Positions 12,209 through 63,059 of a stretch of 64,000 nt of DNA are shown here, in pieces. The stretch comes from a virus (lineage: Duplodnaviria > Caudoviricetes), in IMG/VR virus record IMGVR_UViG_3300028805_000057, positions 64,001 through 128,000 of that record; one strand, given 5' to 3'. The notes below the pieces were generated by a model. That model ran no database searches. It was not told the origin of the DNA and worked only from the letters and a program-made list of their open reading frames with translations. How positions within the stretch are numbered: position 1 is the stretch's first letter; each line of letters starts with the position of its first letter. The position numbers and the translations under genes were made by a program.

Positions 12209-12559
12209 ATGGATGAGAGTATACTAACATCAATTAAAACTCAATTAGCTCTTATGCCAGAAGATGAATCATTTGACAGAGAGTTAATAATATTTATAAA
12301 TGCTGCGTTCGCTAGACTGACACAGCTTGGTGTTGGTCCAATGCCTCATTTCCAAATAGCAGATGATAGTACAACTTGGGATGAATATGTCACAGATATT
12401 ACACAAGAAGAAATGGCAAAAGTATATGTTTATCTCAAAGTAAAAAGATTATTTGACCCACCTGCTAATTCAACACTTGCAAAAGCAATTGATGAAGAAA
12501 TAGCAATGTATGAATACTTATTAAAAGTTGAAGCGGAGGATGATGCAGAATATGAGTGA
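12209..12559 (+). CDS. head-tail adaptor/connector
   Basis: SILTSIK..FD..IN..LTQLGVG..YVYLKVKRLFDPP pattern typical of this phage group. Confidence 0.65.
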   Translation: MDESILTSIKTQLALMPEDESFDRELIIFINAAFARLTQLGVGPMPHFQIADDSTTWDEYVTDITQEEMAKVYVYLKVKRLFDPPANSTLAKAIDEEIAMYEYLLKVEAEDDAEYE

Positions 12560-17430: not shown

Positions 17431-19842
17431 ATGAATCAAGACTACGATTTTGCCGGTTGGGCAACCAAAAATGACATTCTTTGTGAAGACGGTCGTGTTA
17501 TTAAGAAGGATGCATTTAAGGATTGCGATGGTAAACAGGTACCGTTAGTCTTCAATCATGATCACAAAGATGTTCAGAACTTTTTAGGACATTGTGTATT
17601 AGAAAATCGTGATGAGGGTGTTTACTGCTATGGCTATATAGACAAAGACACACCTGCAGGTCAGCAGGCTCTGAGTCTTATTAAACATGGAAGTTTGAAT
17701 TCTCTCTCGATTTATGCTAATAAACTTAAACAGATTGGTCATGATGTAATTCACGGTCTTATTCGTGAAGTTTCACTTGTACTTGCTGGTGCTAATTCAG
17801 GCGCTGTAATAGATACAGTATTAGCTCATGCAGAAGATGCAAGTGATATTGAAGGCGATGCTATGATAGTTTACGCTGGTGAAGAAAATCCTATTGAGCA
17901 TAGTTTTGATGATTCCGAGCACGAAGAAGAAATAGAACATTCAGCTGATGAGTCAGAAGATGATGAAGCAGTATTTGATTCTATGACAGATGCTCAGAAG
18001 AGACTTATGCTCAAAATGATGGGTATGGCTGCAGAAGATGCAGCAAATTCTACAGTTTCCCATTCTTCAAAAGATGCTGAGGAAGATGATGAAGATGACG
18101 ATGACGAAGACGATGAGTCAGAGTTAGAACATTCTAAAGAATCTTCTGAAGAGAATGAAGATAAGGATAAAAAGAAAGCTTGTTCACACAGCTTCTTACT
18201 TTTTGGTAATGATGATGAATTGAGTCATGCTTCAAAAGAAGAAGACGAAAAAGAAGAAACCAAAAATGAGGAAGATGATGAAGACAATGAAAACCTCGAA
18301 GATGCTGAAGAATCCGATGTAGAAGAGGATGACAAAGACGACGAGGAAGAAACAAATGATTCAAACAAAAATAATGAGAAGGAGAAAAAAGAAATGACTC
18401 ACAATTTATTTGAAAATCAGGCACAGAACGATGTTCTTATCCACAGCGCTGAAATGTGCAGCGAGATGATGGCAGATGCAGTTAAGTTTGGTTCACTTAA
18501 GGATTCCGTAATGGCTCATAGTGCAGATTACGGTATTGATAACATTGATTACCTTTTCCCGAATGCAAAGAATTACACCACTACTCCTGAGTTCATTAAG
18601 AGAAGAACTGAGTGGGTTAATGAAGTTCTTTCAGGCGTTCGTCAGTCACCTTTCAGCCGTGTTAAGACTATCTTCGCTGACATCACCGAGGATGAGGCTC
18701 GTGCTAAGGGTTACATCAAGGGTAACCGTAAGGCAGAGGAAGTATTCACTCTGTTAAAGAGAGAGACCACTCCTACTACCGTTTACAAGAAGCAGAGAAT
18801 TGATCGTGATGATATTATCGATATCACTGACTTCTCAGTTATCGAGTATATCAAGGCAGAGATGAGAATTATGTACGATGAGGAATGTGCACGTGCAATC
18901 CTTGTTGGTGATGGACGTAATCCTCTTAGCCCTGACAAGATCAAGGAAGCTAACATCAGACCTATCTGGACAGATGATGATCTGTTTACAGTTAAGAGAG
19001 CAATCGCTGTTACTACAGCTACAACTGATCAGGCTCGTGCTAAGGCATTTATCAAGAACCTTGTTAAGTCAAGAAAGCTTTACAGAGGTTCAGGTAATCC
19101 TACACTCTTCATCGCTGAGGACCTTCTTGCTGATATGCTCCTTATCGAGGATGAGATGGGACGTCTTATCTATGATGACATCAACAAGCTTAAGAACACT
19201 CTTCGTGTTAACAAGATTGTTGAAGTTCCGATCTTTGATGGTCTTATGAGAATAGACAATGGCGATACCAAGTATCTTGCAGCTATTCTTGTTAATCTTA
19301 ATGACTACAGAACTGGCCGTGATCGTGGTGGCGAGCTCAGCTTCTTCGATGATTTTGATATCGACTTCAACCAGCAGAAGTATCTTATGGAGTCAAGATT
19401 CTCAGGTGCTCTTGTTCTGCCTTATTCAGCAGTTGCATATGAGTTCGTTTACAATCTTACTCTTGATATCCAGGCAGAGGACAGCACTACTGTTGTTCTT
19501 GGCAAGCAGGTATCTGAGCTTCAGGAGAATGTATTCGTTAATGAGAACTCTGTACAGGGTATCCTTAACTATGTAACTGGTTATACTCAGTTCTCAGATT
19601 CACCTGAGCTTCAGGAAGGTCACTATCTTGCACTTAAGTTCGAGGCATCTGATGGAGCAACTGTTACTATCCAGACTATCGGTGGCGTAGATGATGCAAG
19701 AGTCGTTACTCTTGATCAGGATATGAATTCAGTTACTTATGTTAAGTCTACAAAGGAGAAGCTCAGAGTTACTTGCTCACTTAACGGCGACGTTATCACA
19801 AGAACTATCACCTTCAGTGGCTTAAAGCTTCTTGCTGAGTAA
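17431..19842 (+). CDS. prohead protease-scaffold-major capsid fusion with C-terminal extra domain
   Basis: N-terminal HK97-type protease (PLVFNHDH, SLSI, EVSLVLAGAN), acidic linker, capsid fold (FFDDFDIDFNQQKYLMESRFSGAL), C-terminal beta-rich extension. Confidence 0.9.
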   Translation: MNQDYDFAGWATKNDILCEDGRVIKKDAFKDCDGKQVPLVFNHDHKDVQNFLGHCVLENRDEGVYCYGYIDKDTPAGQQALSLIKHGSLNSLSIYANKLKQIGHDVIHGLIREVSLVLAGANSGAVIDTVLAHAEDASDIEGDAMIVYAGEENPIEHSFDDSEHEEEIEHSADESEDDEAVFDSMTDAQKRLMLKMMGMAAEDAANSTVSHSSKDAEEDDEDDDDEDDESELEHSKESSEENEDKDKKKACSHSFLLFGNDDELSHASKEEDEKEETKNEEDDEDNENLEDAEESDVEEDDKDDEEETNDSNKNNEKEKKEMTHNLFENQAQNDVLIHSAEMCSEMMADAVKFGSLKDSVMAHSADYGIDNIDYLFPNAKNYTTTPEFIKRRTEWVNEVLSGVRQSPFSRVKTIFADITEDEARAKGYIKGNRKAEEVFTLLKRETTPTTVYKKQRIDRDDIIDITDFSVIEYIKAEMRIMYDEECARAILVGDGRNPLSPDKIKEANIRPIWTDDDLFTVKRAIAVTTATTDQARAKAFIKNLVKSRKLYRGSGNPTLFIAEDLLADMLLIEDEMGRLIYDDINKLKNTLRVNKIVEVPIFDGLMRIDNGDTKYLAAILVNLNDYRTGRDRGGELSFFDDFDIDFNQQKYLMESRFSGALVLPYSAVAYEFVYNLTLDIQAEDSTTVVLGKQVSELQENVFVNENSVQGILNYVTGYTQFSDSPELQEGHYLALKFEASDGATVTIQTIGGVDDARVVTLDQDMNSVTYVKSTKEKLRVTCSLNGDVITRTITFSGLKLLAE

Positions 19843-48157: not shown

Positions 48158-48300
48158 AAAATATTATGAACATAACCATGTAGAAAATCGCATGGGATTT
48201 ATTCATAAATATTTACAAACAAATATTATGAACAGAACCATACCAAAAAACTGCATGGGATTTATTCATAAATATTTACAAACAAATATTATGAACAGAA
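48158..48300. repeat. 62/63-bp tandem duplication spanning a start codon
   Basis: AAATATTATGAACA three times (ATGs at 48166, 48228, 48291); GCATGGGATTTATTCATAAATATTTACAAAC twice. Confidence 0.85.
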
Positions 48301-49859
48301 TAATGTTTTATAATAAACTAGATAAGTTTAAGAAAAACCTAGAAGAAAAAAATAGTTTAGAACATAGATTTAGTGATCACGATGGTGTTGATAATAAACT
48401 TGATACTAATGGAAATAGACCCAGAGAAGTTCATACGAATGAATATAAGGGCACTTTTAATAATACTAGACGTGGTAATTTATCTAGAGCAACTAAACCT
48501 AAGTCTAATTATGGACAGAGTTATTATACAAAGATTGATAAATATTATCCTGATGGTACTGCTAGATACTTCTATTCAAAAGATGAATATGAAGCATATC
48601 AAAATGGGCAGGTGAAAGGTAATAGTGCTAAACATCTTGATCAAATGATGAAAGAAACTGCTGAGAGAAAAGTTATCGAAGATAAAAAGAAACAACAAGA
48701 AGAAATCTATAGAAAGAATAAAGAAGCAGATGAAGCAAGAGTTAAAGCAGAACAAGAAAAATATGCTAAATTACGTGCTGAAAATAACAAACAAAAACCT
48801 AAGACAAGAGAAGAAGCTGAAAAAGAAGCTATAAAAAGAGAACAAGAAAGAATAAGAAAAGCTGATATTGAAGCTAACAAGAAACCTGAAACTAAGGCAC
48901 TTGAACAAGCTGAAGATGAATTAGTAAAACTTAAAGGAAAACAGAATCTTGCTAAGAATCGTGGTTTAGATGACAAAAACAATAAGAAAGAATATGATAA
49001 GTTGACTAAAGAAATCGAAGCAAAAGAAAAAGAAATTGCTTCAATAAGAAAGAAGATGGCTGATGAAACATTAGCGAATAGAGATAAAGAAATTAAAGAA
49101 GCTACAAAAAGAGAGCAAGAAAGAATAGAAAAAGAAGCTACTGAGAAACTTGAAACTTGGAAAGAAAATATTAAAGATAATATCAATGATTATGCTCTTG
49201 AAGTATATGATAATATTAAGAGATGCGCAAATGATAGAGATGTTTCTTTTAATGTAGATAATCCATTTGTAGATTTATTTAAAGAAGCTCTTAAGAAATA
49301 TGATCCAGACTTTGATGGAGATATCGCAGCATACGTGAGACCTTATCCTGGACAAAGTATTGCAGGTATACTTGGCAGTGAATTACTTAAAGATGATAAA
49401 CATACCAAGATTGCTAAGAAAGTTCTTAATGAATTAGAAGATAATTTAGATAAAACTATTGATAAATATACTATTAATGATGAACAATATGATGATTTCT
49501 TAGATCATCTTAAAGGAAAACAGGAAAAGAATAAAACTGCAGCTATTGATAAAGAAATGGATAATGCAAGAAAATCACTTGAAGCAATGTATAATGGTGA
49601 TGAAAACAGTATTAATCTTGATAAATCTCTTAAGAAAGTACTTGAAACTAAACTTAAAGAAATTGACCCTGAATATGAAAAAGGTAATCTTTATAAATAT
49701 GTAAGACCTTATATTCTTGGTAAATGGTGGAAAGATGATGAATCATATGCTAAAGTTACGGAAGCTCTTAATGAACTTGAAAAAGAATTAAGATCTGCAA
49801 ATAAACATGATGATGCATATGGTGATTTTGTTGAAAAAGTTTCAAAAATACTTGCATGA
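48291..49859 (+). CDS. leader-tagged coiled-coil protein (YYxKID..RYFY module)
   Basis: MNRIMFYNKLDKFK leader, SLEH, YYTKIDKYYPDGTARYFYSKDEYEAY; internal repeat (LK..DP....G....YVRPY). Confidence 0.7.
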   Translation: MNRIMFYNKLDKFKKNLEEKNSLEHRFSDHDGVDNKLDTNGNRPREVHTNEYKGTFNNTRRGNLSRATKPKSNYGQSYYTKIDKYYPDGTARYFYSKDEYEAYQNGQVKGNSAKHLDQMMKETAERKVIEDKKKQQEEIYRKNKEADEARVKAEQEKYAKLRAENNKQKPKTREEAEKEAIKREQERIRKADIEANKKPETKALEQAEDELVKLKGKQNLAKNRGLDDKNNKKEYDKLTKEIEAKEKEIASIRKKMADETLANRDKEIKEATKREQERIEKEATEKLETWKENIKDNINDYALEVYDNIKRCANDRDVSFNVDNPFVDLFKEALKKYDPDFDGDIAAYVRPYPGQSIAGILGSELLKDDKHTKIAKKVLNELEDNLDKTIDKYTINDEQYDDFLDHLKGKQEKNKTAAIDKEMDNARKSLEAMYNGDENSINLDKSLKKVLETKLKEIDPEYEKGNLYKYVRPYILGKWWKDDESYAKVTEALNELEKELRSANKHDDAYGDFVEKVSKILA

Positions 49860-49875
49860 AAGGAGAGTGATTAAG

Positions 49876-50145
49876 ATGGATACATCAAGTATTGCAGTAA
49901 TTATTGTGGCATTAATCGGCGCAATAGCAACAATAACATCAAATATTGTAATGAACAACAAACAGTCAGCAGCAATGGATGCTAAGTTGGATAAGCAGCA
50001 AGGAATTATTGAAGAACGACTAAGTAATTTAAAAGAATCAGTCGATAAACATAATAACTTTGCTCAGAAAATCCCAGCAATCGAAGCAAATATTGAAAAC
50101 ATTGAAAAACGAATCGACAAATTAGAAAGTAAATTAATAAAGTAA
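49876..50145 (+). CDS. membrane-anchored coiled-coil protein (holin/XhlA-like)
   Basis: IAVIIVALIGAIATI TM segment, VDKHNNF; AGGAG RBS (track 49807). Confidence 0.6.
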   Translation: MDTSSIAVIIVALIGAIATITSNIVMNNKQSAAMDAKLDKQQGIIEERLSNLKESVDKHNNFAQKIPAIEANIENIEKRIDKLESKLIK

Positions 50146-50158
50146 GGAAGGAGTCAAA

Positions 50159-50311
50159 ATGGATAGAAATACATTCTTTGATAATCTAAAAAGTTATAAT
50201 GCTAACTCCTTACATAATAATATTACTAACAAACATGCTAGTAATAGATTCGAGTTTTATGATTCATTACAACACCATGGAATGAGAGGAAGTAAAAAGA
50301 AATCAAAATAG
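50159..50311 (+). CDS. 50-aa leader-only microprotein
   Basis: Not in track; AAGGAG RBS; MDRNTFFDNLKSY...NRFEFYDSLQHHGMRGSKKKSK. Confidence 0.6.
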   Translation: MDRNTFFDNLKSYNANSLHNNITNKHASNRFEFYDSLQHHGMRGSKKKSK

Positions 50312-50325
50312 GGGGTTAAATAATC

Positions 50326-51207
50326 ATGGATAGTTTTGAATTTTATTATAATCTTGATTCATATAATAAAAACTCCTTGAGACATAAATCGGAGTCCTCT
50401 CTTAAAGGTACACAAAAAGAAAATGTTAAATACTTTAAGAGAGAAGGTACTCCTGGTAATTACAAATATTATTATACAAAAGAAGAATACGAAGCTTCTA
50501 AGAAACCTGAAAATAAAGTAGATGTTGTAACAAATGTTAAACCTACTTTACAAGCTAATAAAACTTTTAATAAGAAAAAGAAAGTATCTCATAAGTCATT
50601 ATATACACCTATGCAACAAGCTAAGAAAATAAATAATGCTAAGATGAATAAACAATATGATAAGAAATTTGTAGATGTTGTACAAGGTAAAGATAAAATG
50701 ACATCTGAGGAAAGAGTAGAAGAATATAAAAACTATTTACAAGATCCTGAGAATTACAATGAAGATACATATATAGAAAACAGATTAACAAAACTTGGTG
50801 AAGGTGGAAATGTTAATCTTAATCTTCGACCTGAGATTTCTACACAAGAATTAATAGATGCAAAATGGCCTGAAAAAGAAGTAGGCGAAGGATACGCTAC
50901 AGTATTTTCAAGTACATTTTCAAATGAAGGTGACACAGAATTTTATAACTTTACTCCGATTGTTATGGATCCTAAAACTGGTGAGTATCTTGGTTGTATG
51001 GATCCTGAAGAATTTAAACAGTATTGTTATGATGTAATTGATGGTATAAGAGAAGATGATAAGAATTGTCAAATAGGTGGAGCATTTACTGGTGAAAATG
51101 CAAAAGATTTGGCAGAAAAAGCAGCTATAGAAATTCATGATTTACATGAACAGCAACATGTTAATGAAGAGAATAAAAAGAAAAATAAATCAAACAATTC
51201 AAAATGA
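50326..51207 (+). CDS. leader-tagged protein (KY..YYYTKEEY module)
   Basis: MDSFEFYYNLDSY..SLRH..KYFKREGTPGNYKYYYTKEEYEA; C-terminal domain not recognised. Confidence 0.7.
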   Translation: MDSFEFYYNLDSYNKNSLRHKSESSLKGTQKENVKYFKREGTPGNYKYYYTKEEYEASKKPENKVDVVTNVKPTLQANKTFNKKKKVSHKSLYTPMQQAKKINNAKMNKQYDKKFVDVVQGKDKMTSEERVEEYKNYLQDPENYNEDTYIENRLTKLGEGGNVNLNLRPEISTQELIDAKWPEKEVGEGYATVFSSTFSNEGDTEFYNFTPIVMDPKTGEYLGCMDPEEFKQYCYDVIDGIREDDKNCQIGGAFTGENAKDLAEKAAIEIHDLHEQQHVNEENKKKNKSNNSK

Positions 51208-51225
51208 GGGGGTCCTGGTAAAAAT

Positions 51226-52143
51226 ATGTTACAAAAAGAATTCTATACAAAATTAGAAATGGCAAGACAAAAGCAGGACTCCTTACAACATCATGGTATT
51301 AAAGGTCAGAAGTGGGGTGTAAGGCGTTTCCAGTATATGGATGGTTCTTACACCCAAGCTGGCCGTGAAAGATATGGTTATGGTCCTGCAAGACAACCAA
51401 AACAAGAAGATGATAAAGTTGGTGTTATGATACCTATTCCTTCAGCTGCAGTTCCACCAATATTGGCTGCTGGTGCTGCTATTTTAGGAGTAGAATTAGG
51501 ATTATCTACAATAGGTGATGCTATACATAATGCTAAAGTTTCGAAAGATATTAAGAATTGGGAGGCAAATCGAGCAAAAGAAGAAACTGATCCTAAGACT
51601 GGTCTTAAACTTAAATCTGATCCAAATGCTTCTGTTAAAGATGATATGAAAATGATTAACAGAGAATATGGATATGGAATGTTTGCTAAGGCGATTTGGG
51701 ATATTGATTCAAAGAAATCAATGGGTCATACAGAAAATTGTATGCTTTGTACAACTGCTTTGGATCTTAAGAGAAGAGGATATGACGTTAAAGCCGGTTC
51801 AAGTAAAGATGGATACTATGCTAAAGATGTTGCTAATTGGTATAAAGAAAAGAAACAACCTACTATGGGCAAATTTAATAGCATTATAGAACAGCTTAAT
51901 AAACAACCTGAAGGTTCTTATGGAAACTTTATGGTATACTGGAAAGAAGGCGGTGGGCATTCTATGTTTTACAGGATTGAAGGTGGTAAACCTGTAATAT
52001 ATGATGCTCAGTCTAACAAGAATTATACAATATATGAAATTTCAAATCATATAAATAATTCAATTCCAGGACATTGTTTCTTAAGAACAGATAACTTAAC
52101 ACCGGATTACGATTATTTAAAGAAGAATAATATTATAGCCTGA
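51226..52143 (+). CDS. leader-tagged papain-fold (Tox-PL-like) effector 1
   Basis: SLQHHGIKGQKWGVRR, hydrophobic segment, NCMLC..RGYDVKA..GGHS..IYDAQ. Confidence 0.72.
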   Translation: MLQKEFYTKLEMARQKQDSLQHHGIKGQKWGVRRFQYMDGSYTQAGRERYGYGPARQPKQEDDKVGVMIPIPSAAVPPILAAGAAILGVELGLSTIGDAIHNAKVSKDIKNWEANRAKEETDPKTGLKLKSDPNASVKDDMKMINREYGYGMFAKAIWDIDSKKSMGHTENCMLCTTALDLKRRGYDVKAGSSKDGYYAKDVANWYKEKKQPTMGKFNSIIEQLNKQPEGSYGNFMVYWKEGGGHSMFYRIEGGKPVIYDAQSNKNYTIYEISNHINNSIPGHCFLRTDNLTPDYDYLKKNNIIA

Positions 52144-52269
52144 ACGAAGTAAAAAGCTCAGCCTGTGATTGATTTTGAGCAGGGTGGCATAGAACGAATG
52201 TTTAGGATAAAGAATTTGGTTTTCAGAATGAAAAGCAATTATTATTGCATAGGAGGGTTCAAAATAAGT

Positions 52270-53871
52270 ATGAATAGATATGAATTCTATGGAAATATTA
52301 ATACATACAGAAAAAATCAATCAAATAAAGAAAATGAATTAACTCACTACGGAACTCTCGGTCAAAAATGGGGTGTTCGTAAGTGGCAGAACTATGATGG
52401 TACTTTTAATGAGGCTGGTAAGGAAAGATATTTTGGAACTAAGAAAGCTAAAAATGAAGAAAAAATAAATTCAAAATATCAAAATAAAGATGGTTCTTTA
52501 ACACAAGAATATATAAATAAAATTCAAAAATTAACTAATGAAGGTAAATTTGATGAAATTGAAAAACTTAAAAAACAAATAGATTTTGATAAAGTACAAG
52601 AATGGTCTAAGAAAACAAATCCGAATTTATATAAAATGCCAGATTTTAGTGATCCTTCAGAATATGAAGGAGATTTTGAATCATATGTTGAAGATAATTG
52701 GGAAACTGCAGCTAAGAAAAGAGGGTTCGATCTTGATGATATTTTAACAGATGAACAATATGAAATAATTAATCAGGATATGAAGGATTATTTTAATAGT
52801 CATGAAGAAAAAATAGGTTCTGTCTTTAATAAAAATTTAAGTGAAGAAAAGAAAGATAAATTACGAGAAAAATTATATTCACGTGATAGTGAAATGCTTA
52901 CTATAGATCAATTATATGATGAAGATGAACAGAAATATTTATTAAATAAAAAAGTTTCTAAAAAAGTTAATAAATTAGTTGATTGTTTGACTAAAGGTGA
53001 TTTTGATGAATATAATAAAATATTAGAAGATGTTGACCCAGAACATTTACAAACAGTAAAGAATGCTGCACAAGATTTAGCCAATACAAAACAATTAAGA
53101 AATGTCGATACATCTAGATTAACTGAAGTTTCAAAAGATATTTTTGGAAATGATAATATATTAGGTGTTCAAAGTATTCTTGCAATGACAAATAGTGATG
53201 ACATTAATGCACATTCATCAAATAGAGTGTATCCAGTAGATATACGACAGTCAATTATAGATAATAGTACTCTATTAAAAACTGCTATATTAGAATATGA
53301 AAGAGGCTATAAAGATGGATACGAAAGAGATATACAAATTGCTTCTGGCGGTGATGAACGCCGTGCAAAATATATGAAACAGTTTGTTGATGATGTCGAA
53401 GCTGTTAAAGAATACTCTAAAGATTCTAAAGAAATTAATGATGAATTACGTAAGTTAAAAACAAAAGAATCTTGTGACGATAAAGCTTTTATTAATTATC
53501 ATTATACAGAAGCTTTATATGATAATATGCGTAAATATATAAATGATGATTTTCCTGTAAGACTTAAAAAAGGAACAAATGATGCTAAGAAAATGGTTAA
53601 TAATCTTTATAAAAACTTTGAAAAATATTCAAAAGAATTTAAAGAAGATTTATATTATCAATTATTAGATTACTATGATGATGAATATATTTCAAAATCT
53701 GAATTTATGAAAGAAATAGGAAAAATCAATGCTGTTGAAATGTATGGTAATGGTAATATAACTTTTACTTATACAGTACCAGGTGAAATGGGATATGATA
53801 TGGTTAATATAAATGGCAATATAAACGATAATGGGAAACTTACAATAGATGATGCTGATTTTATTGATTAA
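52270..53871 (+). CDS. leader-tagged protein, paralog of 55409..56923
   Basis: MNRYEFYGNINTYR..ELTHYGTLGQKWG; AGGAGG RBS before ATG 52270 (track 52165). Confidence 0.72.
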   Translation: MNRYEFYGNINTYRKNQSNKENELTHYGTLGQKWGVRKWQNYDGTFNEAGKERYFGTKKAKNEEKINSKYQNKDGSLTQEYINKIQKLTNEGKFDEIEKLKKQIDFDKVQEWSKKTNPNLYKMPDFSDPSEYEGDFESYVEDNWETAAKKRGFDLDDILTDEQYEIINQDMKDYFNSHEEKIGSVFNKNLSEEKKDKLREKLYSRDSEMLTIDQLYDEDEQKYLLNKKVSKKVNKLVDCLTKGDFDEYNKILEDVDPEHLQTVKNAAQDLANTKQLRNVDTSRLTEVSKDIFGNDNILGVQSILAMTNSDDINAHSSNRVYPVDIRQSIIDNSTLLKTAILEYERGYKDGYERDIQIASGGDERRAKYMKQFVDDVEAVKEYSKDSKEINDELRKLKTKESCDDKAFINYHYTEALYDNMRKYINDDFPVRLKKGTNDAKKMVNNLYKNFEKYSKEFKEDLYYQLLDYYDDEYISKSEFMKEIGKINAVEMYGNGNITFTYTVPGEMGYDMVNINGNINDNGKLTIDDADFID

Positions 53872-53907
53872 AATTTTTTAAAAGAAAAATCAAAATGGAG
53901 GAATATT

Positions 53908-54177
53908 ATGGGCAATGACTTAGTAGGTCAGGCTATTGAAGCTATGAAAAAATATAGACCTGAAAAAACAGTAATAAAGATTTGGAATAAAGGTAAGTCA
54001 TGTCTTATACTTGCTGCAAAGAATCCTAAAGAATACCAAATGGAGATGGATCCTTATTATATATTTGCTGAGGGTGCTATCTCCGGTATCTCTTATTTGG
54101 ATAATGCTGTCAAGTTAAAAAAGATAATGAAACCAGAGTATATAGCATACACTCGAAAGGAGCTTGGAAATGAATAG
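53908..54177 (+). CDS. small protein, putative immunity/partner 1
   Basis: Paralog of 55131..55391 (KKYxP..AK..DP(Y/F)Y..G..G); no leader. Confidence 0.6.
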   Translation: MGNDLVGQAIEAMKKYRPEKTVIKIWNKGKSCLILAAKNPKEYQMEMDPYYIFAEGAISGISYLDNAVKLKKIMKPEYIAYTRKELGNE

Positions 54178-54231
54178 CTATACTATACAAAAAGCGTATA
54201 GCAGATCCATTCATTATGAAAGGAGTAATAA

Positions 54232-55119
54232 ATGAATAGAATAGAGTTTTATTCAAGTTTAAATAAATATAAAGATATTCAAGAGAAATCTGATAATGAA
54301 TTAAAACACTATGGCATAAAAGACCAGAAATGGGGTGTAAGACGTTGGCAGAATCCTGATGGTACATTTAATGCTGAAGGTAAGTTAAGATATTTCGGTG
54401 CTCAGCCTAAAGAAGGTAGTGTAACTGCACTTGCTGGTGTATTTGCTCTTTGGGGTGCAGAATTAGCTTTGTTAGTTGGCGGACCAGTGACTGCATATGC
54501 AATACAAGATGCTAAAACTACAAATAAAATAAAGAAATTTGAAGCAAATTTAGCAACAGAAAAAACAGATCCTGAAAGTGGATATAAATTAAAGAATGAA
54601 AAAATGTCTAAAAATACTACAAAAGAAGACATGTCATATGTAAATATGGAACAACAATATGCTGGTATGAAACAAAAGAATAGAGATGCTAAAGAAGGAA
54701 CTAGTATGAATTGTTCTTTATGTACTACTGCAATGGTTCTTAGACAAAAAGGATATGATGTACGTGCTGGTAAGACTAAAGAAGGTACATCATATCAAGA
54801 ACAAGAAAAACGTTATAAAGGTGGCAAGTTTACATTAGGAACATTCAAAGATATTATAAAAGAACTCGAAAAACAACCTGAAGGTTCTTACGGACATTTC
54901 TCTGTTGAATGGAGAGAAGCTTATGGTGGAGCTCATAGTATGTTTTATAAGATTGAGAACGGCAAACCTGTAATATATGATTGTCAAGTTAATCAAGTTG
55001 TTAAACCGAAAAATTTATATAAAAATGCTTCGCCTCTTGAAGATAAGACTAAGTTTATGAGATGTGATAATCTCGAAGTTAATTGGGATTATATAAAAGA
55101 GAATAAACTTGTACACTAG
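54232..55119 (+). CDS. leader-tagged papain-fold (Tox-PL-like) effector 2
   Basis: ELKHYGIKDQKWGVRR, hydrophobic segment, NCSLC..KGYDVRA..GAHS..IYDCQ. Confidence 0.72.
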   Translation: MNRIEFYSSLNKYKDIQEKSDNELKHYGIKDQKWGVRRWQNPDGTFNAEGKLRYFGAQPKEGSVTALAGVFALWGAELALLVGGPVTAYAIQDAKTTNKIKKFEANLATEKTDPESGYKLKNEKMSKNTTKEDMSYVNMEQQYAGMKQKNRDAKEGTSMNCSLCTTAMVLRQKGYDVRAGKTKEGTSYQEQEKRYKGGKFTLGTFKDIIKELEKQPEGSYGHFSVEWREAYGGAHSMFYKIENGKPVIYDCQVNQVVKPKNLYKNASPLEDKTKFMRCDNLEVNWDYIKENKLVH

Positions 55120-55130
55120 GAGGAAATAAT

Positions 55131-55391
55131 ATGAATATAATAGATGAAATTAAAGATGCTTTCAAAAAATATAATCCTGATTTATATGTAATAGCAATAT
55201 TTATTGCAGAAAAAGATTTATATTTTGTAGTTGCAAAACATACTCCCGATAAAACAACAGTTGAAGAAGATCCTTTCTATATGTATGGAAATGGAAAAGT
55301 TACTGGTGTTACAATAACAGATTCTGAAGAAAGAATGAATAATGCATTTGAAATTATGCAAGCAAAGAATCGTATTTATGAAATTGATTGA
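55131..55391 (+). CDS. small protein, putative immunity/partner 2
   Basis: Directly after effector 2; paralog of 53908..54177. Confidence 0.6.
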   Translation: MNIIDEIKDAFKKYNPDLYVIAIFIAEKDLYFVVAKHTPDKTTVEEDPFYMYGNGKVTGVTITDSEERMNNAFEIMQAKNRIYEID

Positions 55392-55408
55392 AAGGAGGGA
55401 GTCTTCAA

Positions 55409-56923
55409 ATGAATAAAATAGAATTCTTAGCAAATATAGATAAATATAAAGGCGAAGATCATTCTACTTTCCTTCAGCATTACGGAATCTTAGGACAAAA
55501 ATGGGGACAGCGTAGATGGCAAAATCCTGATGGCACTTTTAATGAAGAAGGTAAGCAAAGATATTTTGGTCAGAAATCAAACAATATAAGTTCTGAAGAA
55601 AAGATTGGTGGTTATACTGCAGATCATTTTCACAAAAATATTTATTTAAAGACTGACAAGAATACTCTTAAGAAAATTAAGAAGTATCCTGATATATATG
55701 ATACAGAAGGTTTAACTGATGATGAAATATTAAAAGCTGTTAGACGTGTTCCTAAGATACCTAATGCTAGAGCATATGGTAGAGAAATTAGAGAAGAACT
55801 TTATAATACTCAATTGAATAAGACAAGATCTAAGTATTACGAGACAAATACTAAAGATATTCTTGAAGCTGAAGATGTTGAAGAGCAAAAGATTGGTGGT
55901 TGGACAGATCATGGTAAAAAGATTGATGAATTATATCCTAATGATAATGGACATTTATATAGTGATAATCTTTACACATCTGATGAACAAGAATATTTTA
56001 TGAATGAAAAAAATGCTAATAGAATAAATAAAATGGCTAAGTATGCTATGGAAGGTAATACTAAAAAGTATGATAAATTAATGGATAAAATTGATGACAA
56101 ATATAAAGATACAGTAAGAAGAGCAGTTCTTGATATTGAAGATGGTATAGATAATAAAGCTAATAATAAAAAAGGCAGAGAACTTTCTAAAGAAATAGGA
56201 CTTGGAGAAGTTGATTTAAATGCAATATTAAGAAATCGATATAAAGATGATGAACGAATGTATTCAATTAAAGATCGTGATATGATTCGTAATAATATGG
56301 ATACTATAATGACAGCAGTTAAGAAACTTAAAAATCAAGATATTAATGGATATTATGATGAAGTTGAAAAGATAGCTCGTACTGGTGAAGATAAAGATAC
56401 TATTGATAGATTTGTAGATGACTATATTAGTATTAAATCATATATTGATGAAGGTAAAAAACTAGATAAAGAATTAAAAAATATGAAAAATATTCAAAGT
56501 AAATGTAAATATCCAATTGATTATGATACAGACGCAAGAGACTTTATGTTCTCAGAATATACAAAAGACTATAGATCAATTCAAGAAAAGATGCAAGATC
56601 CTAAAATACATAGAGACGGACAAAAAGTTATTAATAATCTTAATAAAAACTTTGATAAATATGTTGATCAATTTAAAGATAAAGTTGTTGAAAATCTTTA
56701 TGAAGATTATAAAGATTGGCATGCTGATGATGACAAGATACTATCTAAACAGCAATTTAAGAATGCCATTGGTAAAGTAAATAGTGGTAGTATTGATGAT
56801 ACTGGATATTTACAATTATATCTTGAAGATAATGGTTTATTCTATGGACATGTATTTACAAGTCTTGGAGTTATAGATGATAACGGTAATCTTAAAGTTG
56901 AAGATGTATTCTTAGAAGGTTAA
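55409..56923 (+). CDS. leader-tagged protein with DUF2262-like C-terminus
   Basis: MNKIEFLANIDKYK..FLQHYGILGQKWG; ends DNGLFYGHVF..LEG; start 55409 (track 55388). Confidence 0.7.
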   Translation: MNKIEFLANIDKYKGEDHSTFLQHYGILGQKWGQRRWQNPDGTFNEEGKQRYFGQKSNNISSEEKIGGYTADHFHKNIYLKTDKNTLKKIKKYPDIYDTEGLTDDEILKAVRRVPKIPNARAYGREIREELYNTQLNKTRSKYYETNTKDILEAEDVEEQKIGGWTDHGKKIDELYPNDNGHLYSDNLYTSDEQEYFMNEKNANRINKMAKYAMEGNTKKYDKLMDKIDDKYKDTVRRAVLDIEDGIDNKANNKKGRELSKEIGLGEVDLNAILRNRYKDDERMYSIKDRDMIRNNMDTIMTAVKKLKNQDINGYYDEVEKIARTGEDKDTIDRFVDDYISIKSYIDEGKKLDKELKNMKNIQSKCKYPIDYDTDARDFMFSEYTKDYRSIQEKMQDPKIHRDGQKVINNLNKNFDKYVDQFKDKVVENLYEDYKDWHADDDKILSKQQFKNAIGKVNSGSIDDTGYLQLYLEDNGLFYGHVFTSLGVIDDNGNLKVEDVFLEG

Positions 56924-56936
56924 GGGAGGACCCTAA

Positions 56937-59330
56937 ATGACTAACAAAGAAATTCATGAAATGATTAAAAAATATGAATCAAAATGGGGACGACTTGGGC
57001 ATACTAATATTATGAGACCTGAATTAAATCACTCAGGAGAAGAAGGAGGAACAACAATGTCAAGCATGACTAATGATTTAATAGCATTTAGACAGAAAGT
57101 TGCTGCAGGTAGAGAAGCTAATAGACTTGCTCATAAATCAACTGTCAATGTTACAGATATTAATAGAAGATATTTTGAAGAGATTACCACAAATGGTACT
57201 TTGATACATGCTGGAACTAATCAGCAAAACTACAAATACTATCAGAAGATAGATCTTGGTAATGGTCAGTCAAGATATTTCTATACTAAGGAAGAATGGG
57301 ACGCTTACCAGAATGAAAAGAATGGTAAGAAACAGTCTACCGGTGGCGCTGAGAAAGTTCGTCAGATGCATAATGAGAAAGAATCTAATCTCCAGGGCAT
57401 GATTAAAGATGGCGATTACTATGAAAAAGGTGAAGATGGTAAATTCCATAAGACTGATAAGAAATGGGATGATGTTAGAAAGCAGGCCATTGAAGAAGCT
57501 GATAACAAGATAATTGATGCTGCTAAAGAAGGTGGATATGAAGCTGCTAAGAAAGCTATCTTTGATGATGATCGTATGCTTGAAATGTTTGGCCAGTTTG
57601 AAGGCGGATTTGAGAATCATGGCTGGGAGCTTAATGATGATGACTCGATTACTGGTATGGATGATAATGATGAAAAGTACTTCAAGGAAATGGAAACTTG
57701 GCTTCGTAGCTTCAAGGATTCTACCGGTATAGATATTTATAAGAATCCCGATTTCCAGAAGTCTGTAATGGATGAAATTCGTAAGAGATATAATCTTATG
57801 AAGAATCAGGCTAAGGAAAGAGAATCAAAAATCGAAGGAACTAAGAAGTATGCTACTCCTGAAGGTGCTGGTAAGAAGTCTGAAGAGAAGAAAGAAGAGA
57901 CCACTAAGTCTGAAGAGAAGAAAGAAGAGACCACTAAGACCGAAGAGAAGAAGACTGAATCTAATAGCGGATCAGACTTTGATAAGAAGTTGAATGAAAC
58001 CATTACAAATGAAGGTTCTGATGCCACAGCTGATTATATCATTAATAACTCACCTGAATTTAAGGCTTATGCAAATGCTCTTCGTAAGGCTGTTGCTGAT
58101 GGCAAGATTAAAGTATATCGTGATGGCGGAATGACTGGTAAGGAAAATAAAGAACTTGCTAGCACATTTGATCCGTTACTCGAAGACCTTGATGCTTTAT
58201 TACAGAAAGCTGCTAAGAATCCAGACTTTGATCGTAAGGGTGTTGAGAAGCTTATCAATAAGGAATTTGAGAATATTGCTGCAGCTGCAACAGAGGATAA
58301 ATATGGTGTAAGAGACAATACTAAGAAGTTTGTAAAACATTCCTTAGAAGAGCCTGAAATCATGGATGAGTATTCAGCATTTATGGAAAGAGTTAAGAAG
58401 GGTAGAGAAAAGAATAAACTTGCTCATTCTATAATGATTTCTCCTTCTGATTTAAATGCTAGATACGAGCAGTCCATTAAAGATCATTGTTTCTTAATTC
58501 ATAGTGGCAATTTCAAGTATTACAACAAGATTGACTTAGGTAATGGTAATACAAGATATTTCTATACTAAGGCCGAGTGGGATGCTTATCAGAGAGAAAA
58601 GGGTTCTAAGACTAATACTGATCAGAAGCTTTCCAAAGAAACTTTAAAGCAGATCGAACAGCAAAAGCAGAAGAAAGCAAACTATGATAATAATGCTGAA
58701 GCTGCTAAACATGAAGGCGACAGATGGCAGAAGAAAGAAGAGCCTAAGCCTAAAGTTACTGTTGAAACAATTGTAGTTGATGTAAAGAAAGATCCTAATT
58801 TTACAAAAACTGTAGATACTGTTAAAGCAGCAATTGATAATGGAGATATATCATATGTATATGATAAGCCCATTGTTAATATTGATAAGAAAACTGGTAA
58901 ACTAAGTGAAGCTGGTATGAAAGCTAATGAAGCTTGGCAGAATCTCTATAAGTCATTTAATGATTTATCGTCAAAGAATAAAGAAAATGGTTTATCATAT
59001 GAAGATGTTAAAGGCGCTTTAATGGATGCTTTTAATTCTGAATTAAAGAAAGCTCAATCTTCAAATAAGTCTGGATCTGATGATAAGCCAAAAGATTCAA
59101 ATCCTGATAACTTAGGCTTTGATAAGATGAAAGAAGGAATGACTCAGGAAGAATTTAATAAGGCATTGAAGGATGCTAGAGATTCTATTGATTTCGATAA
59201 GATGACAAATGAGATATCCGAAGTTATCAATGACCAGTTCAAGAATGTGGATCAAAGCGTTCTTGATGGCATTAAAGATCAGGTAACAAAAGAAACTGAA
59301 AAAATGTTAAAGAATAAATTAGGTTTCTAA
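56937..59330 (+). CDS. polyprotein-like leader-tagged protein with two KYYxKIDLGNG modules
   Basis: Duplicated AF..V..GRE.N.LAH..LIH(A/S)G..KYY.KIDLGNG..RYFYTK.EWDAYQ; seven hydrophobic-x-His sites. Confidence 0.75.
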   Translation: MTNKEIHEMIKKYESKWGRLGHTNIMRPELNHSGEEGGTTMSSMTNDLIAFRQKVAAGREANRLAHKSTVNVTDINRRYFEEITTNGTLIHAGTNQQNYKYYQKIDLGNGQSRYFYTKEEWDAYQNEKNGKKQSTGGAEKVRQMHNEKESNLQGMIKDGDYYEKGEDGKFHKTDKKWDDVRKQAIEEADNKIIDAAKEGGYEAAKKAIFDDDRMLEMFGQFEGGFENHGWELNDDDSITGMDDNDEKYFKEMETWLRSFKDSTGIDIYKNPDFQKSVMDEIRKRYNLMKNQAKERESKIEGTKKYATPEGAGKKSEEKKEETTKSEEKKEETTKTEEKKTESNSGSDFDKKLNETITNEGSDATADYIINNSPEFKAYANALRKAVADGKIKVYRDGGMTGKENKELASTFDPLLEDLDALLQKAAKNPDFDRKGVEKLINKEFENIAAAATEDKYGVRDNTKKFVKHSLEEPEIMDEYSAFMERVKKGREKNKLAHSIMISPSDLNARYEQSIKDHCFLIHSGNFKYYNKIDLGNGNTRYFYTKAEWDAYQREKGSKTNTDQKLSKETLKQIEQQKQKKANYDNNAEAAKHEGDRWQKKEEPKPKVTVETIVVDVKKDPNFTKTVDTVKAAIDNGDISYVYDKPIVNIDKKTGKLSEAGMKANEAWQNLYKSFNDLSSKNKENGLSYEDVKGALMDAFNSELKKAQSSNKSGSDDKPKDSNPDNLGFDKMKEGMTQEEFNKALKDARDSIDFDKMTNEISEVINDQFKNVDQSVLDGIKDQVTKETEKMLKNKLGF
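57876..57953. repeat. 30-bp in-frame tandem repeat (KSEEKKEETT)
   Basis: AAGTCTGAAGAGAAGAAAGAAGAGACCACT twice plus a partial copy. Confidence 0.8.
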
Positions 59331-59340
59331 AAATCAAAAT

Positions 59341-59376
59341 GGGTACCTGGATAATTTCTGGGTACCCTTATTTTTT
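59341..59376 (+). terminator. rho-independent terminator
   Basis: GGGTACCTGGA/TCTGGGTACCC stem followed by TTATTTTTT. Confidence 0.75.
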
Positions 59377-59465: not shown

Positions 59466-62400
59466 ATGAAATGGAACTACGATGATTCTATAAGAGATGA
59501 ATTTAGCAAGGGACCGCATAGAGATATTCTCATAGTTCCTCATGCTACATATGTTACTCCAGTATCTGGTGGGCCTCCTGAAATAAAATCTAAGGTCCCT
59601 CAGTATATGTGGATTCCAATGCCTGTACCGATATGGGATGCTAAGGAAAAGAAGATGACGATTGTTACAATCCAACAGCCTTTTCCTAAGAAAGATCCAA
59701 GTACAGGTGAAGTATTAAGAGAAGATGTAGAGTGGGTTATCACGAATGATGATATTATTAAAGAAAAGTTTAAATATTCTCATTCACTTAATTCGGAATC
59801 CAACTTAACATTCTCTTCTTGTAATGCTGCAATGGTACAATTTACCATAAGAAATAAGAAACAATATATACAAGAATTAGATGAACAGGGCGAACCTACA
59901 GGAGAATATTACTGGGAACAAGAAATACCAAATTTACAAAACTATGAATTTGTAGAGAAGGACCCTGATGGTAATAGTAGAAAGATAGTTGGTGAATTAT
60001 CTGGTAATGCTTGTATTAAAGTCTATACATACATAAATGGTGACTCAAGTACATTAATGTATTTAGGAATGTTCCAAGTTGAAGAAGATAAGATGGTTGA
60101 TAATGGGTATAACCGTCAAATTACTGCATATGACTTCATGGCATTCTTCAGAGATTGCGACATATTCTATTGGTATAAGCATCTCTGGACAGGTATAAAT
60201 AAACTGGACAATGACTTTGAAGACTATACAAGTGATAGTGATGAAGAAAAGAAGAAACCTGATGATTATGATGCTGAAGTTAACTGGGTAAGAAAACCGG
60301 CAAAAGATTTATATCCAAATAGAGATGGTAGATGGACTATAGGTGAAGCATTAAGGGATCTATTTGAAAACTTTGCGGCTTATGATATGATTACTTATGA
60401 TGAGGAAGAAATCGAAGTAGAGGATCCGGATACTCATGAAAAGAAAAAAGTTAAGACAACTGTAGCAAAATTAGGTAATACCGTAACAAACCCAAATAAC
60501 TATGGACGAAATTATGAAGAAGGAACTGGTTATACAGGATTAGGTATGCCTGTAATGTTAGATCCTGATTTATATGATAATACAAAAGAATATAGTATAC
60601 CAACAGAACCAGGTGCAGATCAATATGAATGTTATGGTTACATGGATGCTTTAGATATTGAATTTTATCAAGATCCGAATATAATGAAGTCAGAATCTTT
60701 AAGTATGGGCAAATTCCTTGAAGATATTGGATTATTAGCTGGTAGATATCCTTATATCAGAACTGATCACTTACAAGATGATGATTGGTTTGATCCTGCA
60801 ACTAAAACAGGAAATCAAAATAGATATAATAATTATGAGAAATGTATTTTAACATTTAAACCTCTACCATCAAGTAAAGATGATAGCAAATTACCTACTG
60901 ATCAAATGTTGGATAATACAGAAATCAGTAAAGGATTTAGTCATGAATCTTATACTGTTGATGATATTGAGATAGTTAAGATAAATTTCCAAGATAAAAG
61001 TAAGATTGAATATTCAAGACTTACGGCAAGTCAGAGAAAAGATAAGAAAACAGGTAATGTACAAACATTTACTTTTAGTGATAATATATTTGTTTCATAC
61101 CTTGTCGAAAAATCTGATAATGAAGAAATTAAAAAGAAATTAGAGAATTATAAAGCATTAAAATTAAAGATATTTGGTAAAAACAATAAAAAAGGTAATA
61201 TGAGTTCTACAGCATTATTTGCACAGGGATATTACAATATGAAATATAGAAGTTATGTCCCTTATGAACTTACAACCTATGCAGACCCTGTACGAGATGT
61301 CGGTGATAGAATAAAGATAACTTATACCGATGTCATCACAGGAGAATATGTAAGCTTTTTCTCATATATTCTTGAACGAGAAATGAATGGTATTCAGAAA
61401 TGCCTGGATACTTACAAAGCTCAAGGTGATGGTCTTAATCCAGTATTTAGTAATTACCAAAGCGGTTCAAAGTATCAAAGTGGTTCAAGTTATGCTGCAA
61501 GTTCTTTCGGTTATAATGCTGTATATAGTGGAACTGGTTCCGGTGGATCAAGTGGCTCTGGTGCATTAGGAATTACTCCAAGTGACTTAGTACAGTATTG
61601 GCGAAACTTTGGTATAAGACTCTTAGATGAACCTAGTGACTGTCAAGCGAAGTTTGTTAAGGGAAGTGAACAAGGAGATCCTACTGCAGAACATTATATA
61701 TACAATATAAGTGGTGGTGAAACTAGTAGTATTAAAGATGGTAATACTACTAATCCAATATTATATGAACCTGGTGATGGTACTGGTACAAAGGAAGCGA
61801 CTGTAACTGCCGGTGATTATGTTGATTGGGTAGAAGATTATCAGCACGATGATCTGATAGTACCAAGTTTTATTGACTATCCTTTATATGTTTATACATT
61901 AAATAGTGAATGGAAATATGTTGGTAATGGCTATACAATGGGAGATGGCGGTTGTAATTTTTATGATAGTTCTAATGCTGAAATTATATTAAGTGATGGA
62001 ACTATTGTAGAAGATGATACTGATATTGAAGGTAAAGCAGATGATACTCTAATTATTAAATTAAAATCTGGAACTCCGTATTATAAATATAGATATACTA
62101 ATACAAGTTTTTATAGATATGCATCTGAAGATTGGGGTTTACCTTATACTACAAAAGAAGAATTAACAACTTCTGCAAGTATAAAAGTTGAACCTGGTGA
62201 TACTATATGGGGTGCCGGGCAATGGTATTGTATTTATCAATATCCAGGAGTATGGGTTATTGCAGGTCATTATCCACAACTAGATATTCCAGTAACACAA
62301 ACAACTAAAAAATACATCTCACTCAAATGGTCTGATCCTCAAGATATTATAGACTGGAAACCTACACCTGCAACATGGGAAGGTACAGTAATTGTAAGGA

Positions 62401-63059
62401 AAGAGAACTCAGCACCACTTCATAGATGGGACGGAGAAAAAGTTGTTCGTACTACTACAAGAGATAAGTATAAGACTAAAGCATATAAAGATGAAGATAT
62501 TAAAGCAAATAAAGTATATTACTATGGATTCTTTCCATATTATACAAAGATTGCCGATCCTGATCATCCTATAAGATTTTATACATTCACTAAGTCTATT
62601 AGAGTTGAGACTGGTATAGTTGCTCATCCTGCGACGATTACTAATTTGATAGTTTCTCATTTGGAGATTACTGTAGTATATGAAATACCATCTATTGCTG
62701 CTGGAGTAAAATATAAATCAGTTACATTAGTTGGTAAAAAGAATGAAGCACCGGTTGACGAAACTGATGGTGATATTATTTTACCATTGGAGGAATCATC
62801 TACTCAAGCAGTTATTGATGGTCTTGAACAAACTACAAGATATTACTTTATAATATTCTCTAAGGATACTGATGATGTTGTAGTATCATCTAATTGTATG
62901 GATGCTATGACTACATATCCTCCAAAGATATTTGCTGAGATTATAGAAACTAGAAATGATCCTTATGATAGTGATTTCTTTACAGAGAGTATAGAAGCTG
63001 TTGGAATGCCATCAGAAAGTAATTTCTTTACTGAAATTATTAATGTTACACAAGGATAA
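59466..63059 (+). CDS. large tail/baseplate-hub protein with C-terminal FN3-like domains
   Basis: YLGMFQV..ITAYDFM and DVGDRIKI tail-hub patterns; LKWSDP..VIVRK..YYYGFFPY and GLEQTTRYYF FN3-like segments. Confidence 0.65.
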   Translation: MKWNYDDSIRDEFSKGPHRDILIVPHATYVTPVSGGPPEIKSKVPQYMWIPMPVPIWDAKEKKMTIVTIQQPFPKKDPSTGEVLREDVEWVITNDDIIKEKFKYSHSLNSESNLTFSSCNAAMVQFTIRNKKQYIQELDEQGEPTGEYYWEQEIPNLQNYEFVEKDPDGNSRKIVGELSGNACIKVYTYINGDSSTLMYLGMFQVEEDKMVDNGYNRQITAYDFMAFFRDCDIFYWYKHLWTGINKLDNDFEDYTSDSDEEKKKPDDYDAEVNWVRKPAKDLYPNRDGRWTIGEALRDLFENFAAYDMITYDEEEIEVEDPDTHEKKKVKTTVAKLGNTVTNPNNYGRNYEEGTGYTGLGMPVMLDPDLYDNTKEYSIPTEPGADQYECYGYMDALDIEFYQDPNIMKSESLSMGKFLEDIGLLAGRYPYIRTDHLQDDDWFDPATKTGNQNRYNNYEKCILTFKPLPSSKDDSKLPTDQMLDNTEISKGFSHESYTVDDIEIVKINFQDKSKIEYSRLTASQRKDKKTGNVQTFTFSDNIFVSYLVEKSDNEEIKKKLENYKALKLKIFGKNNKKGNMSSTALFAQGYYNMKYRSYVPYELTTYADPVRDVGDRIKITYTDVITGEYVSFFSYILEREMNGIQKCLDTYKAQGDGLNPVFSNYQSGSKYQSGSSYAASSFGYNAVYSGTGSGGSSGSGALGITPSDLVQYWRNFGIRLLDEPSDCQAKFVKGSEQGDPTAEHYIYNISGGETSSIKDGNTTNPILYEPGDGTGTKEATVTAGDYVDWVEDYQHDDLIVPSFIDYPLYVYTLNSEWKYVGNGYTMGDGGCNFYDSSNAEIILSDGTIVEDDTDIEGKADDTLIIKLKSGTPYYKYRYTNTSFYRYASEDWGLPYTTKEELTTSASIKVEPGDTIWGAGQWYCIYQYPGVWVIAGHYPQLDIPVTQTTKKYISLKWSDPQDIIDWKPTPATWEGTVIVRKENSAPLHRWDGEKVVRTTTRDKYKTKAYKDEDIKANKVYYYGFFPYYTKIADPDHPIRFYTFTKSIRVETGIVAHPATITNLIVSHLEITVVYEIPSIAAGVKYKSVTLVGKKNEAPVDETDGDIILPLEESSTQAVIDGLEQTTRYYFIIFSKDTDDVVVSSNCMDAMTTYPPKIFAEIIETRNDPYDSDFFTESIEAVGMPSESNFFTEIINVTQG

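Follow-up and report, generated by a model that had tools for sequence, protein, structure and literature searches.

A histidine-ending leader site and short conserved modules mark candidate capsid cargo proteins in a large phage related to Lactococcus phage 1706

The DNA analysed here (the window) is a stretch of 64,000 nucleotides, bases 64001-128000 of a 147,894-bp viral contig (IMG/VR record IMGVR_UViG_3300028805_000057) that was rated complete by CheckV, and all of its genes lie on the plus strand. Our subject is an 11-kb array of candidate capsid cargo genes (48291-59330), together with genes elsewhere in the window that carry the same signature. The array is made up of seven complete genes plus a remnant of 50 residues, and all eight start with a leader ending in a hydrophobic-x-His site. 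The head module of this phage comprises, in this order, an RNA polymerase, an HNH endonuclease, a connector (12209-12559), a large terminase (14295-16037), a portal (16058-17407) and a protease-capsid fusion, and is followed on its 3' side by tail genes, a holin and an NlpC/P60 endolysin. The same gene set defines a supercluster that includes Lactococcus phage 1706, Faecalibacterium phage FP_oengus, Rhodococcus phage ReqiPepy6 and several actinophage clusters (bioRxiv 10.1101/842583); the relation of the window to this supercluster was compared by tblastn. No integrase or resolvase was found in the complete-rated 148-kb genome, and the source, a large gut phage, is apparently virulent.

Leaders with hydrophobic-x-His sites had been listed at eight starts by a first-pass annotation made from the sequence alone, and all of them are present in the translated open reading frames (ORFs). 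They follow the pattern M-x-x-x-E-F-Y-x-x-L ... L-x-H, their His sites read SLEH (48291), SLQH (50159), SLRH (50326), SLQH (51226), ELTH (52270), ELKH (54232), FLQH (55409) and LIH (56937), and a Shine-Dalgarno-like GGAGG or AGGAG was found upstream of every candidate start except that of 48291. The earlier count of eight genes holds for seven, 50159 being merely a remnant, and 56937, which had been described as one more divergent array gene, does carry its LIH site but is actually built of two units with six sites and internal KYY modules. The His is followed by one of two short modules, namely DUF7211 in four genes (51226, 52270, 54232, and 55409) and, based on alignment, the KYY module four times (48291, 50326, and twice in 56937). 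Beyond these modules the C-termini are mutually unrelated: two are papain-fold toxin domains, one is of the DUF2262 type, others are coiled coils and one is a fold without a recognised relative. A profile of the seven EFY-type leaders had no other match in the 148-kb genome, which makes this leader a feature of the array paralogues, the lineage-wide features being the L-x-H site and the post-His modules.

The DUF7211-like character of the first module, also proposed earlier, agrees with Pfam. The PF23847 profile (25 positions, gathering cut-off 27 bits) matched 51226 (29.4 bits) and the head-module gene 12528/12543 (28.9 bits) above the cut-off, and 55409 (26.0 bits), 54232 (25.5 bits) and 52270 (21.4 bits) slightly below it. 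In a six-frame search three genes passed outright, with 33.4, 33.1 (51226) and 30.4 bits (55409), and 54232 reached 26.9 bits alone or 27.6 bits after adding neighbouring in-frame matches. The KYY genes 48291, 50326, and 56937 are not members of DUF7211. For the KYY module AlphaFold predicted a beta-hairpin with a short helix, whereas the DUF7211 module of 54232 came out as floppy or disordered; in both models the His site falls in a low-confidence segment, compatible with an exposed linker.

The array opens with a gene of 522 aa (48291-49859), in which the SLEH leader is followed by a KYY module and then a long coiled coil, and which also has two internal repeats. Its start-codon region is spanned by a 63-bp tandem repeat (48159-48304, plus strand; ~2.3 copies, 86-96% identical) which duplicates the ribosome-binding and start region of this gene and suggests a recent unequal recombination at the array edge. 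Next comes an untagged protein of 89 aa (49876-50145; phrog_1863) that has a coiled coil and, at its N-terminus, a hydrophobic segment and is 95% identical in the closest relative, and then the 50-aa remnant (50159-50311), in which two leader copies precede a truncated DUF7211 start (HHGMRGSKKKSK, then stop) and which is probably a decayed array gene. The same type of double leader was observed in the database entry P0225, there on a full-length KYY protein. The following gene (50326-51207, 293 aa) combines the SLRH leader and the KYY beta-hairpin with a confidently folded C-terminal domain for which no recognisable fold was retrieved (Foldseek best E 0.24; VIA best Z 4.4). Four homologues of it (P0231, P0233, P0235, and P0236) have the same C-terminal cargo domain behind a third post-His module, PHKxHKY[VI]xIxDGRYIYPEDL, instead of KYY.

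The two toxin-like genes, 51226-52143 (305 aa, leader SLQH) and 54232-55119 (295 aa, leader ELKH), share the arrangement of a DUF7211 module, a hydrophobic helix (residues 71-109 in 54232) and a papain-fold toxin domain. Membership in papain fold toxin 1/Gln_amidase (PF15644) was judged by the 24.1-bit cut-off together with the conserved catalytic Cys and His; the domains score 35.1 bits (51226) and 33.2 bits (54232), and in both the Cys and His are intact. Across 14 homologues of the papain domain the invariant columns are N-C, C, H, Q, and D. The domain was modelled with an AlphaFold confidence (pLDDT) of ~90, and its nearest PDB folds are papain-like toxins and effectors, at a weak level of similarity (best E 8e-4, TM 0.3-0.58). 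The predicted activity may be that of a deamidase or of a protease, two options that the models do not distinguish. Between the two toxin genes lies one of 533 aa (52270-53871; leader ELTH, DUF7211 below the cut-off), whose C-terminus had no family match, DUF2262 included. Two small paralogues stand near the toxins, one of 89 aa (53908-54177) and one of 86 aa directly 3' of the toxin gene 54232 (55131-55391). They are 28% identical to each other, their Atlas models resemble PepSY domains (weakly for 55131, TM 0.5-0.6), and their homologues in related arrays adjoin toxin and non-toxin genes alike. PepSY domains act as peptidase inhibitors in other systems, and 53908 and 55131 could be candidate inhibitors or immunity proteins.

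Two more genes complete the array. The first (55409-56923, 504 aa) has the FLQH leader, a DUF7211 module and a C-terminal DUF2262 domain (32 bits, cut-off 29.8), and its Atlas searches returned only DUF2262 clusters without assigned function. The second (56937-59330, 797 aa) is polyprotein-like, with two units that each run LAH ... LIH and then a KYY module; its six hydrophobic-x-His-small sites lie at residues 20-22, 30-32, 89-91, 466-468, 495-497, and 520-522, and it shares with 48291 the presence of long coiled coils. A strong intrinsic-terminator-like hairpin (59341-59367, plus strand; 11-bp stem followed by a T run) ends the array.

The same hydrophobic-x-His motif recurs in the gene for the major capsid protein (17431-19842, 803 residues), where a Peptidase_S78 prohead protease (residues 1-128) is fused to the capsid protein via an acidic spacer. 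The N-terminus of the fusion matches Peptidase_S78 with 33.5 bits over residues 20-128 (cut-off 21), and the fusion as a whole matches phrog_3270 'head maturation protease' (E 1e-194). The spacer (17806-18525; residues 126-365, 240 aa, 37% D+E) contains nine hydrophobic-x-His-small sites, compared with a genome-wide density of 0.20 per 100 residues (binomial P ~2e-9), and 9/11 of its His residues stand in a hydrophobic-x-His-[S/A/N] context. VLAH, the first of these sites, comes after the protease domain, and VMAH, the last, stands immediately in front of the conserved N-arm of the capsid part. This arrangement recurs in a set of 34 distinct homologous fusions from related contigs, 31 of which have a site within 14 residues of the capsid N-arm (P3 Leu in 27; P1' G, S or A). 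There, the hydrophobic-x-His context accounts for 92% of the His residues in spacers vs. 27% in the capsid part, and the sites reach a density of 3.3 vs. 0.41 per 100 residues. The site after the protease domain was found in nearly all of 42 relatives, and an equivalent pattern of sites is visible in phage 1706 ORF10 and in the fusion of ReqiPepy6. A PDB sequence search with the fusion found nothing, hence no solved relative supplies a mature N-terminus.

The first-pass annotation had also reported the tag on three genes outside the array, and in each of them an L-x-H followed by a DUF7211-like start is visible, in the polymerase as a variant. The gene 10621-11976 (451 aa, leader IQH) has a weak DUF7211 score (12.5-17.3 bits), yet the motif is plain in its sequence and aligns with the tag alignment. 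Its product also has a GDAPGID motif, a match to phrog_289 'GTP-binding domain' (E 9e-7) and a weak match to a transglutaminase core; the relatives P0172 and P0175 are without residues 60-212, which implies the gain or loss of a domain in this family. The gene 12543-14276 (577 aa, alternative start 12528) encodes a long coiled-coil protein and lies between connector and terminase, the position of ORF7 in phage 1706. The third (6101-9025) is a YonO/QDE-1-type RNA polymerase (phrog_4291, Pfam RdRP) with the variant tag SLQH-YGTPRHSGRYPWGSG, a variant kept in five distinct relatives, and is 37% identical to phage 1706 ORF75.

A possible link to virions comes from phage 1706, whose GenBank record labels both ORF7 and ORF75 'structural protein' (annotation level). 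In ORF7, located between connector and terminase, an L-x-H stands ahead of each of three modules, two of them DUF7211-like and one KYY-like, and ORF75 shares the N-terminal motif of its homologue, the RNA polymerase of the window.

Profile searches with a catalogue of the C-terminal domains, as the first-pass annotation had suggested, found the DUF7211 tag to be widespread. The leader plus DUF7211 profile retrieved 26,981 clusters (50% identity level), of which 10,505 had E <= 1e-10, and the best-scoring proteins have two to five modules each. Across 322 modules a nearly invariant core was observed, L-x-H-[HY]-G-I-K-G-Q-K-W-G-V-R-R-[YF]-Q-N-x-D-G-[ST]-L-T-x-x-G-[KR]-x-R-Y, in which the His of L-x-H is present in 100% and the Leu in 95%. 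A second His was detected upstream of 178/200 internal modules (45 residues searched; mostly 5-25 away), with a hydrophobic P3 (83%), K/R at P2 and S/D/G/A at P1', i.e., in the context of a scaffold-type site. The joints of the polyproteins are thus ordered cargo - His site - leader - His site - tag - cargo, an arrangement that is hard to account for without processing. As a separate idea, cargo C-termini were screened as relics of such joints, but only 5/206 ended in hydrophobic-x-His, estimated to be near chance, and the idea was dropped; internal hydrophobic-x-His-small sites showed no clear depletion in cargo domains.

The best 80 viral tag loci in IMG/VR, 76 of them distinct, contain three to nine tagged genes each, with leaders of 1-26 residues (often 4-8) and variable sequence. 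Nearly all of the 76 hold a homologue of the window terminase, most share its neighbours too as far as the locus extends (portal, connector and protease-capsid genes), and 18 also hold the RNA polymerase, so that the tag keeps to a single phage head-gene lineage. Tagged genes in relatives usually lie between the terminase and portal genes, as do ReqiPepy6 gp015-021, all of which start FLAH-YGVKGMKWG. KYY modules in 14 further loci mostly follow a leader ending in hydrophobic-x-His-[A/S/G]. A set of 206 related tagged proteins is net basic in 97% of cases, and in the C-termini of 150 related tagged proteins Pfam recognised a papain toxin seven times, GNAT three times and a P-loop once. Literature searches for the DUF7211 tag found no publication on it, and those on capsid-protease fusion and on YonO in virions returned nothing relevant.

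The earlier claim that the C-termini vary was substantiated by close relatives, in which leader and tag are 73-91% identical, yet the C-termini are unrelated or rearranged (P0154, P0155, P0165, P0172, and P0175). In the closest relative (135.7 kb) an array of different composition occupies the same locus after orthologous lysis genes, with the papain toxin domain behind KYY, not DUF7211. In this combination of a conserved N-terminal module with C-termini exchanged among close relatives, the array agrees with polymorphic toxin systems. The proposed independence from MuF also stands, as the Phage_Mu_F domain (PF04233) had zero matches in the 148-kb genome at E <= 0.01.

Some further features of the region were recorded. 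After the array, 59466-63059 encodes the first of three tandem proteins of 1200-1300 aa (phrog_18190), the paralogues of which lie outside the window (genome positions 128318 and 132256). The three share a conserved 26-residue N-terminus ending ILIVPH-[A/G]T, i.e., hydrophobic-x-His-small, and might also be processed, with the caveat that such a site near the N-terminus arises by chance in 17% of all ORFs. The portal begins MDFKNRIKH-AW, with a hydrophobic-x-His-Ala site at residues 7-9. Promoter-like sites were not enriched over shuffled sequence, and megablast of the array against cultured phage records gave no match.

A site at both domain boundaries of the fusion and at high density in the acidic spacer is the signature expected of a protease's own cleavage motif, for which the L/I-x-E sites of T4 set the precedent, and hydrophobic-x-His is likely the recognition motif of the phage's own S78 prohead protease, judging from the recurrence of the same motif in cargo leaders, spacers and domain boundaries of the window and its relatives. 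Considering in addition the enrichment of the motif, the restriction of the tag to one lineage, the shuffling of modules and the annotation of tagged 1706 proteins as virion components, we regard it as somewhat more probable than not that the tagged proteins are cargo that is loaded into the prohead, processed by the protease and delivered with the DNA. The first-pass annotation had assigned the role of targeting signal to the leader, which the data make unlikely: leaders are short and variable, in contrast to a nearly constant stretch of ~30 residues behind the His, so the address is more likely the DUF7211 or KYY module, which would be retained on the mature protein.

Under this scenario each product would consist of a variable, propeptide-like leader, a short basic/aromatic module (DUF7211 or the KYY hairpin) and an exchangeable cargo domain. 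The S78 protease would cut its own capsid fusion at the domain boundaries and dice the scaffold-like acidic spacer. As a suggestion for the docking partner, the basic post-His module may attach the cargo to the acidic scaffold/protease region in the prohead, where the protease would trim the leaders and separate the units of polyproteins. Scaffold fragments would then exit, and the cargo would remain with the DNA and be ejected at infection; it would include the papain-fold toxins and the domains without assignment, which may act on the host, plus the phage RNA polymerase from the head module.

Several observations weigh against this scenario. The P1' residue at the tag is aromatic (H/Y/F/W), compared with small residues (S/A/G) at scaffold sites, hence cleavage exactly after the tag His is uncertain and this His may belong to a binding motif. 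Transmembrane-like segments occur in 28% of the 206 related tagged proteins and in both toxins here, a feature that is unusual for capsid-internal proteins and could point to a role in the producing cell's membrane. A net acidic charge sets several array proteins apart from the usual tagged protein, and the array lies 3' of the lysis genes, outside the head module. The similarity of 12543 to 1706 ORF7 is limited to the tag (and the position). Finally, a hydrophobic-x-His followed by a KYY-like motif (H-KYFKREGTPGNYKYYYT) is present in an unrelated 110-kb phage, in the 182-aa gene that immediately precedes Baseplate_J (L100:10001-10549), which implies that KYY is not confined to head modules or to this lineage.

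Part of this evidence would suit proteins that are never packaged, in which DUF7211 and KYY bind a target inside the infected cell or in its membrane and so serve host takeover, superinfection exclusion or the timing of lysis, and L-x-H belongs to the fold or surface of the module. We judge this unlikely, but it would make sense of the transmembrane-like segments after the tag, the aromatic P1' that sets the tag apart from scaffold sites, the modelled disorder of the tag and the vicinity of holin and endolysin genes, and phages similar to 1706 have been described as rich in membrane proteins (PMC5759034). It leaves unexplained the second His upstream of internal modules, the strict co-occurrence with one head-gene lineage, the usual position between terminase and portal, and the 'structural protein' labels of 1706 ORF7 and ORF75.

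Packaging could also serve a chiefly structural purpose, i.e., the tagged proteins would be internal head, scaffold or DNA-condensing proteins and their variability a matter of weak constraint, an option that we hold to be rather improbable. The strongly basic character of 97% of related tagged proteins, the long coiled coils of 48291, 56937, and 12543, and the small share of C-termini with an enzymatic signature (papain 7, GNAT 3, and P-loop 1 of 150) are in line with it. As for the earlier view of the C-termini as effectors, only two of the eight look like toxins; several are long coiled coils and could be internal proteins with a structural role. A structural purpose is at odds with the papain-fold toxin domains of two array genes, which have Cys and His intact and are structurally nearest to bacterial toxins and injected effectors, with the small paralogous genes beside them that could encode inhibitors, with a tagged RNA polymerase that is clearly an enzyme, and with the combinatorial shuffling of cargo, which is typical of conflict systems. 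A use of the array as secreted polymorphic toxins for competition between bacteria, employed by lysogens in the manner of LXG or MuF proteins, is very improbable: the conserved N-terminus with variable C-terminus, the polymorphic-toxin family PF15644 and a small downstream gene recall such systems, but the complete-rated genome has no integrase or resolvase, neither a signal peptide nor an LXG or MuF domain was recognised, the tag keeps to a single head lineage of phages, and the RNA polymerase is tagged too.

Delivery as prohead cargo, which we favour, has parallels in known systems. The capsid targeting sequence of phage T4 is found on the internal proteins IPI-III and Alt and is removed by the gp21 prohead protease at L/I-x-E. 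Reviews of the T4 case are PMC3012670 and PMC9958956. Both cases involve a short N-terminal peptide that ends in a site of the type hydrophobic-x-residue and occurs in the scaffold/capsid precursor as well, loci with variable, basic cargo genes, and the delivery of cargo with DNA, which is a prediction in the present case. They differ in the protease (S78/HK97-type and fused to the capsid protein here, not gp21), in the P1 residue, which would be His instead of Glu, in the place of the conserved element (after the site here, before it in T4), and in the presence of cargo as multi-module polyproteins. MuF polymorphic toxins of temperate phages combine a head-associated N-terminal part with exchangeable C-terminal toxins and have immunity-like genes nearby. 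The array resembles them in its N-terminal part, probably linked to the phage head, its swappable C-termini and its putative immunity-like genes nearby; it differs in having no MuF domain, a tag of ~30 residues instead of a folded domain, many copies per genome and no integrase. Giant phages (SPN3US, phiKZ-like) package many head-internal ejection proteins, which the prohead protease processes at one common motif, as well as a virion RNA polymerase (PMC7411985, PMC10052503). A shared cleavage motif and an RNA polymerase among the cargo, both of them predictions here, are common to the two, whereas the giant phages are myoviruses with another protease and a motif that ends in Glu, and are without DUF7211 or KYY. 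A further likeness is to phage 1706 ORF7/ORF75 and ReqiPepy6 gp015-021, which have the same tag and belong to the same head-gene lineage; their tagged genes lie between connector, terminase, and portal, in contrast to the second, 11-kb array after the lysis genes and the mixture of DUF7211 and KYY described here.

In its widest form, the proposal is that in the large 1706-like lineage, whose hosts are Firmicutes and Actinobacteria, an S78 protease code specific for His acts together with short, retained DUF7211/KYY addresses to load, and to excise from polyproteins, an open-ended, recombining arsenal that includes the phages' own RNA polymerase and papain toxins; we consider this possible but somewhat less probable than not. 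If true, a hitherto undescribed route of delivery through the capsid, similar in breadth to polymorphic toxin systems, would extend over tens of thousands of protein clusters, and a very large family that is as yet uncharacterised (the 26,981 clusters) would acquire a function. It would also add a new P1 His specificity to the HK97-type prohead proteases and offer a compact tag of ~30 residues with which foreign proteins could be packed into phage heads. Some relatives are in culture (Lactococcus phage 1706 and phages of Rhodococcus, Arthrobacter, and Gordonia), which makes the idea directly testable. For the biology of these phages, it would mean that siphophages infecting bacteria of the gut, rumen, dairy, and soil bring their own RNA polymerase into the cell, along with a changing set of enzymes.

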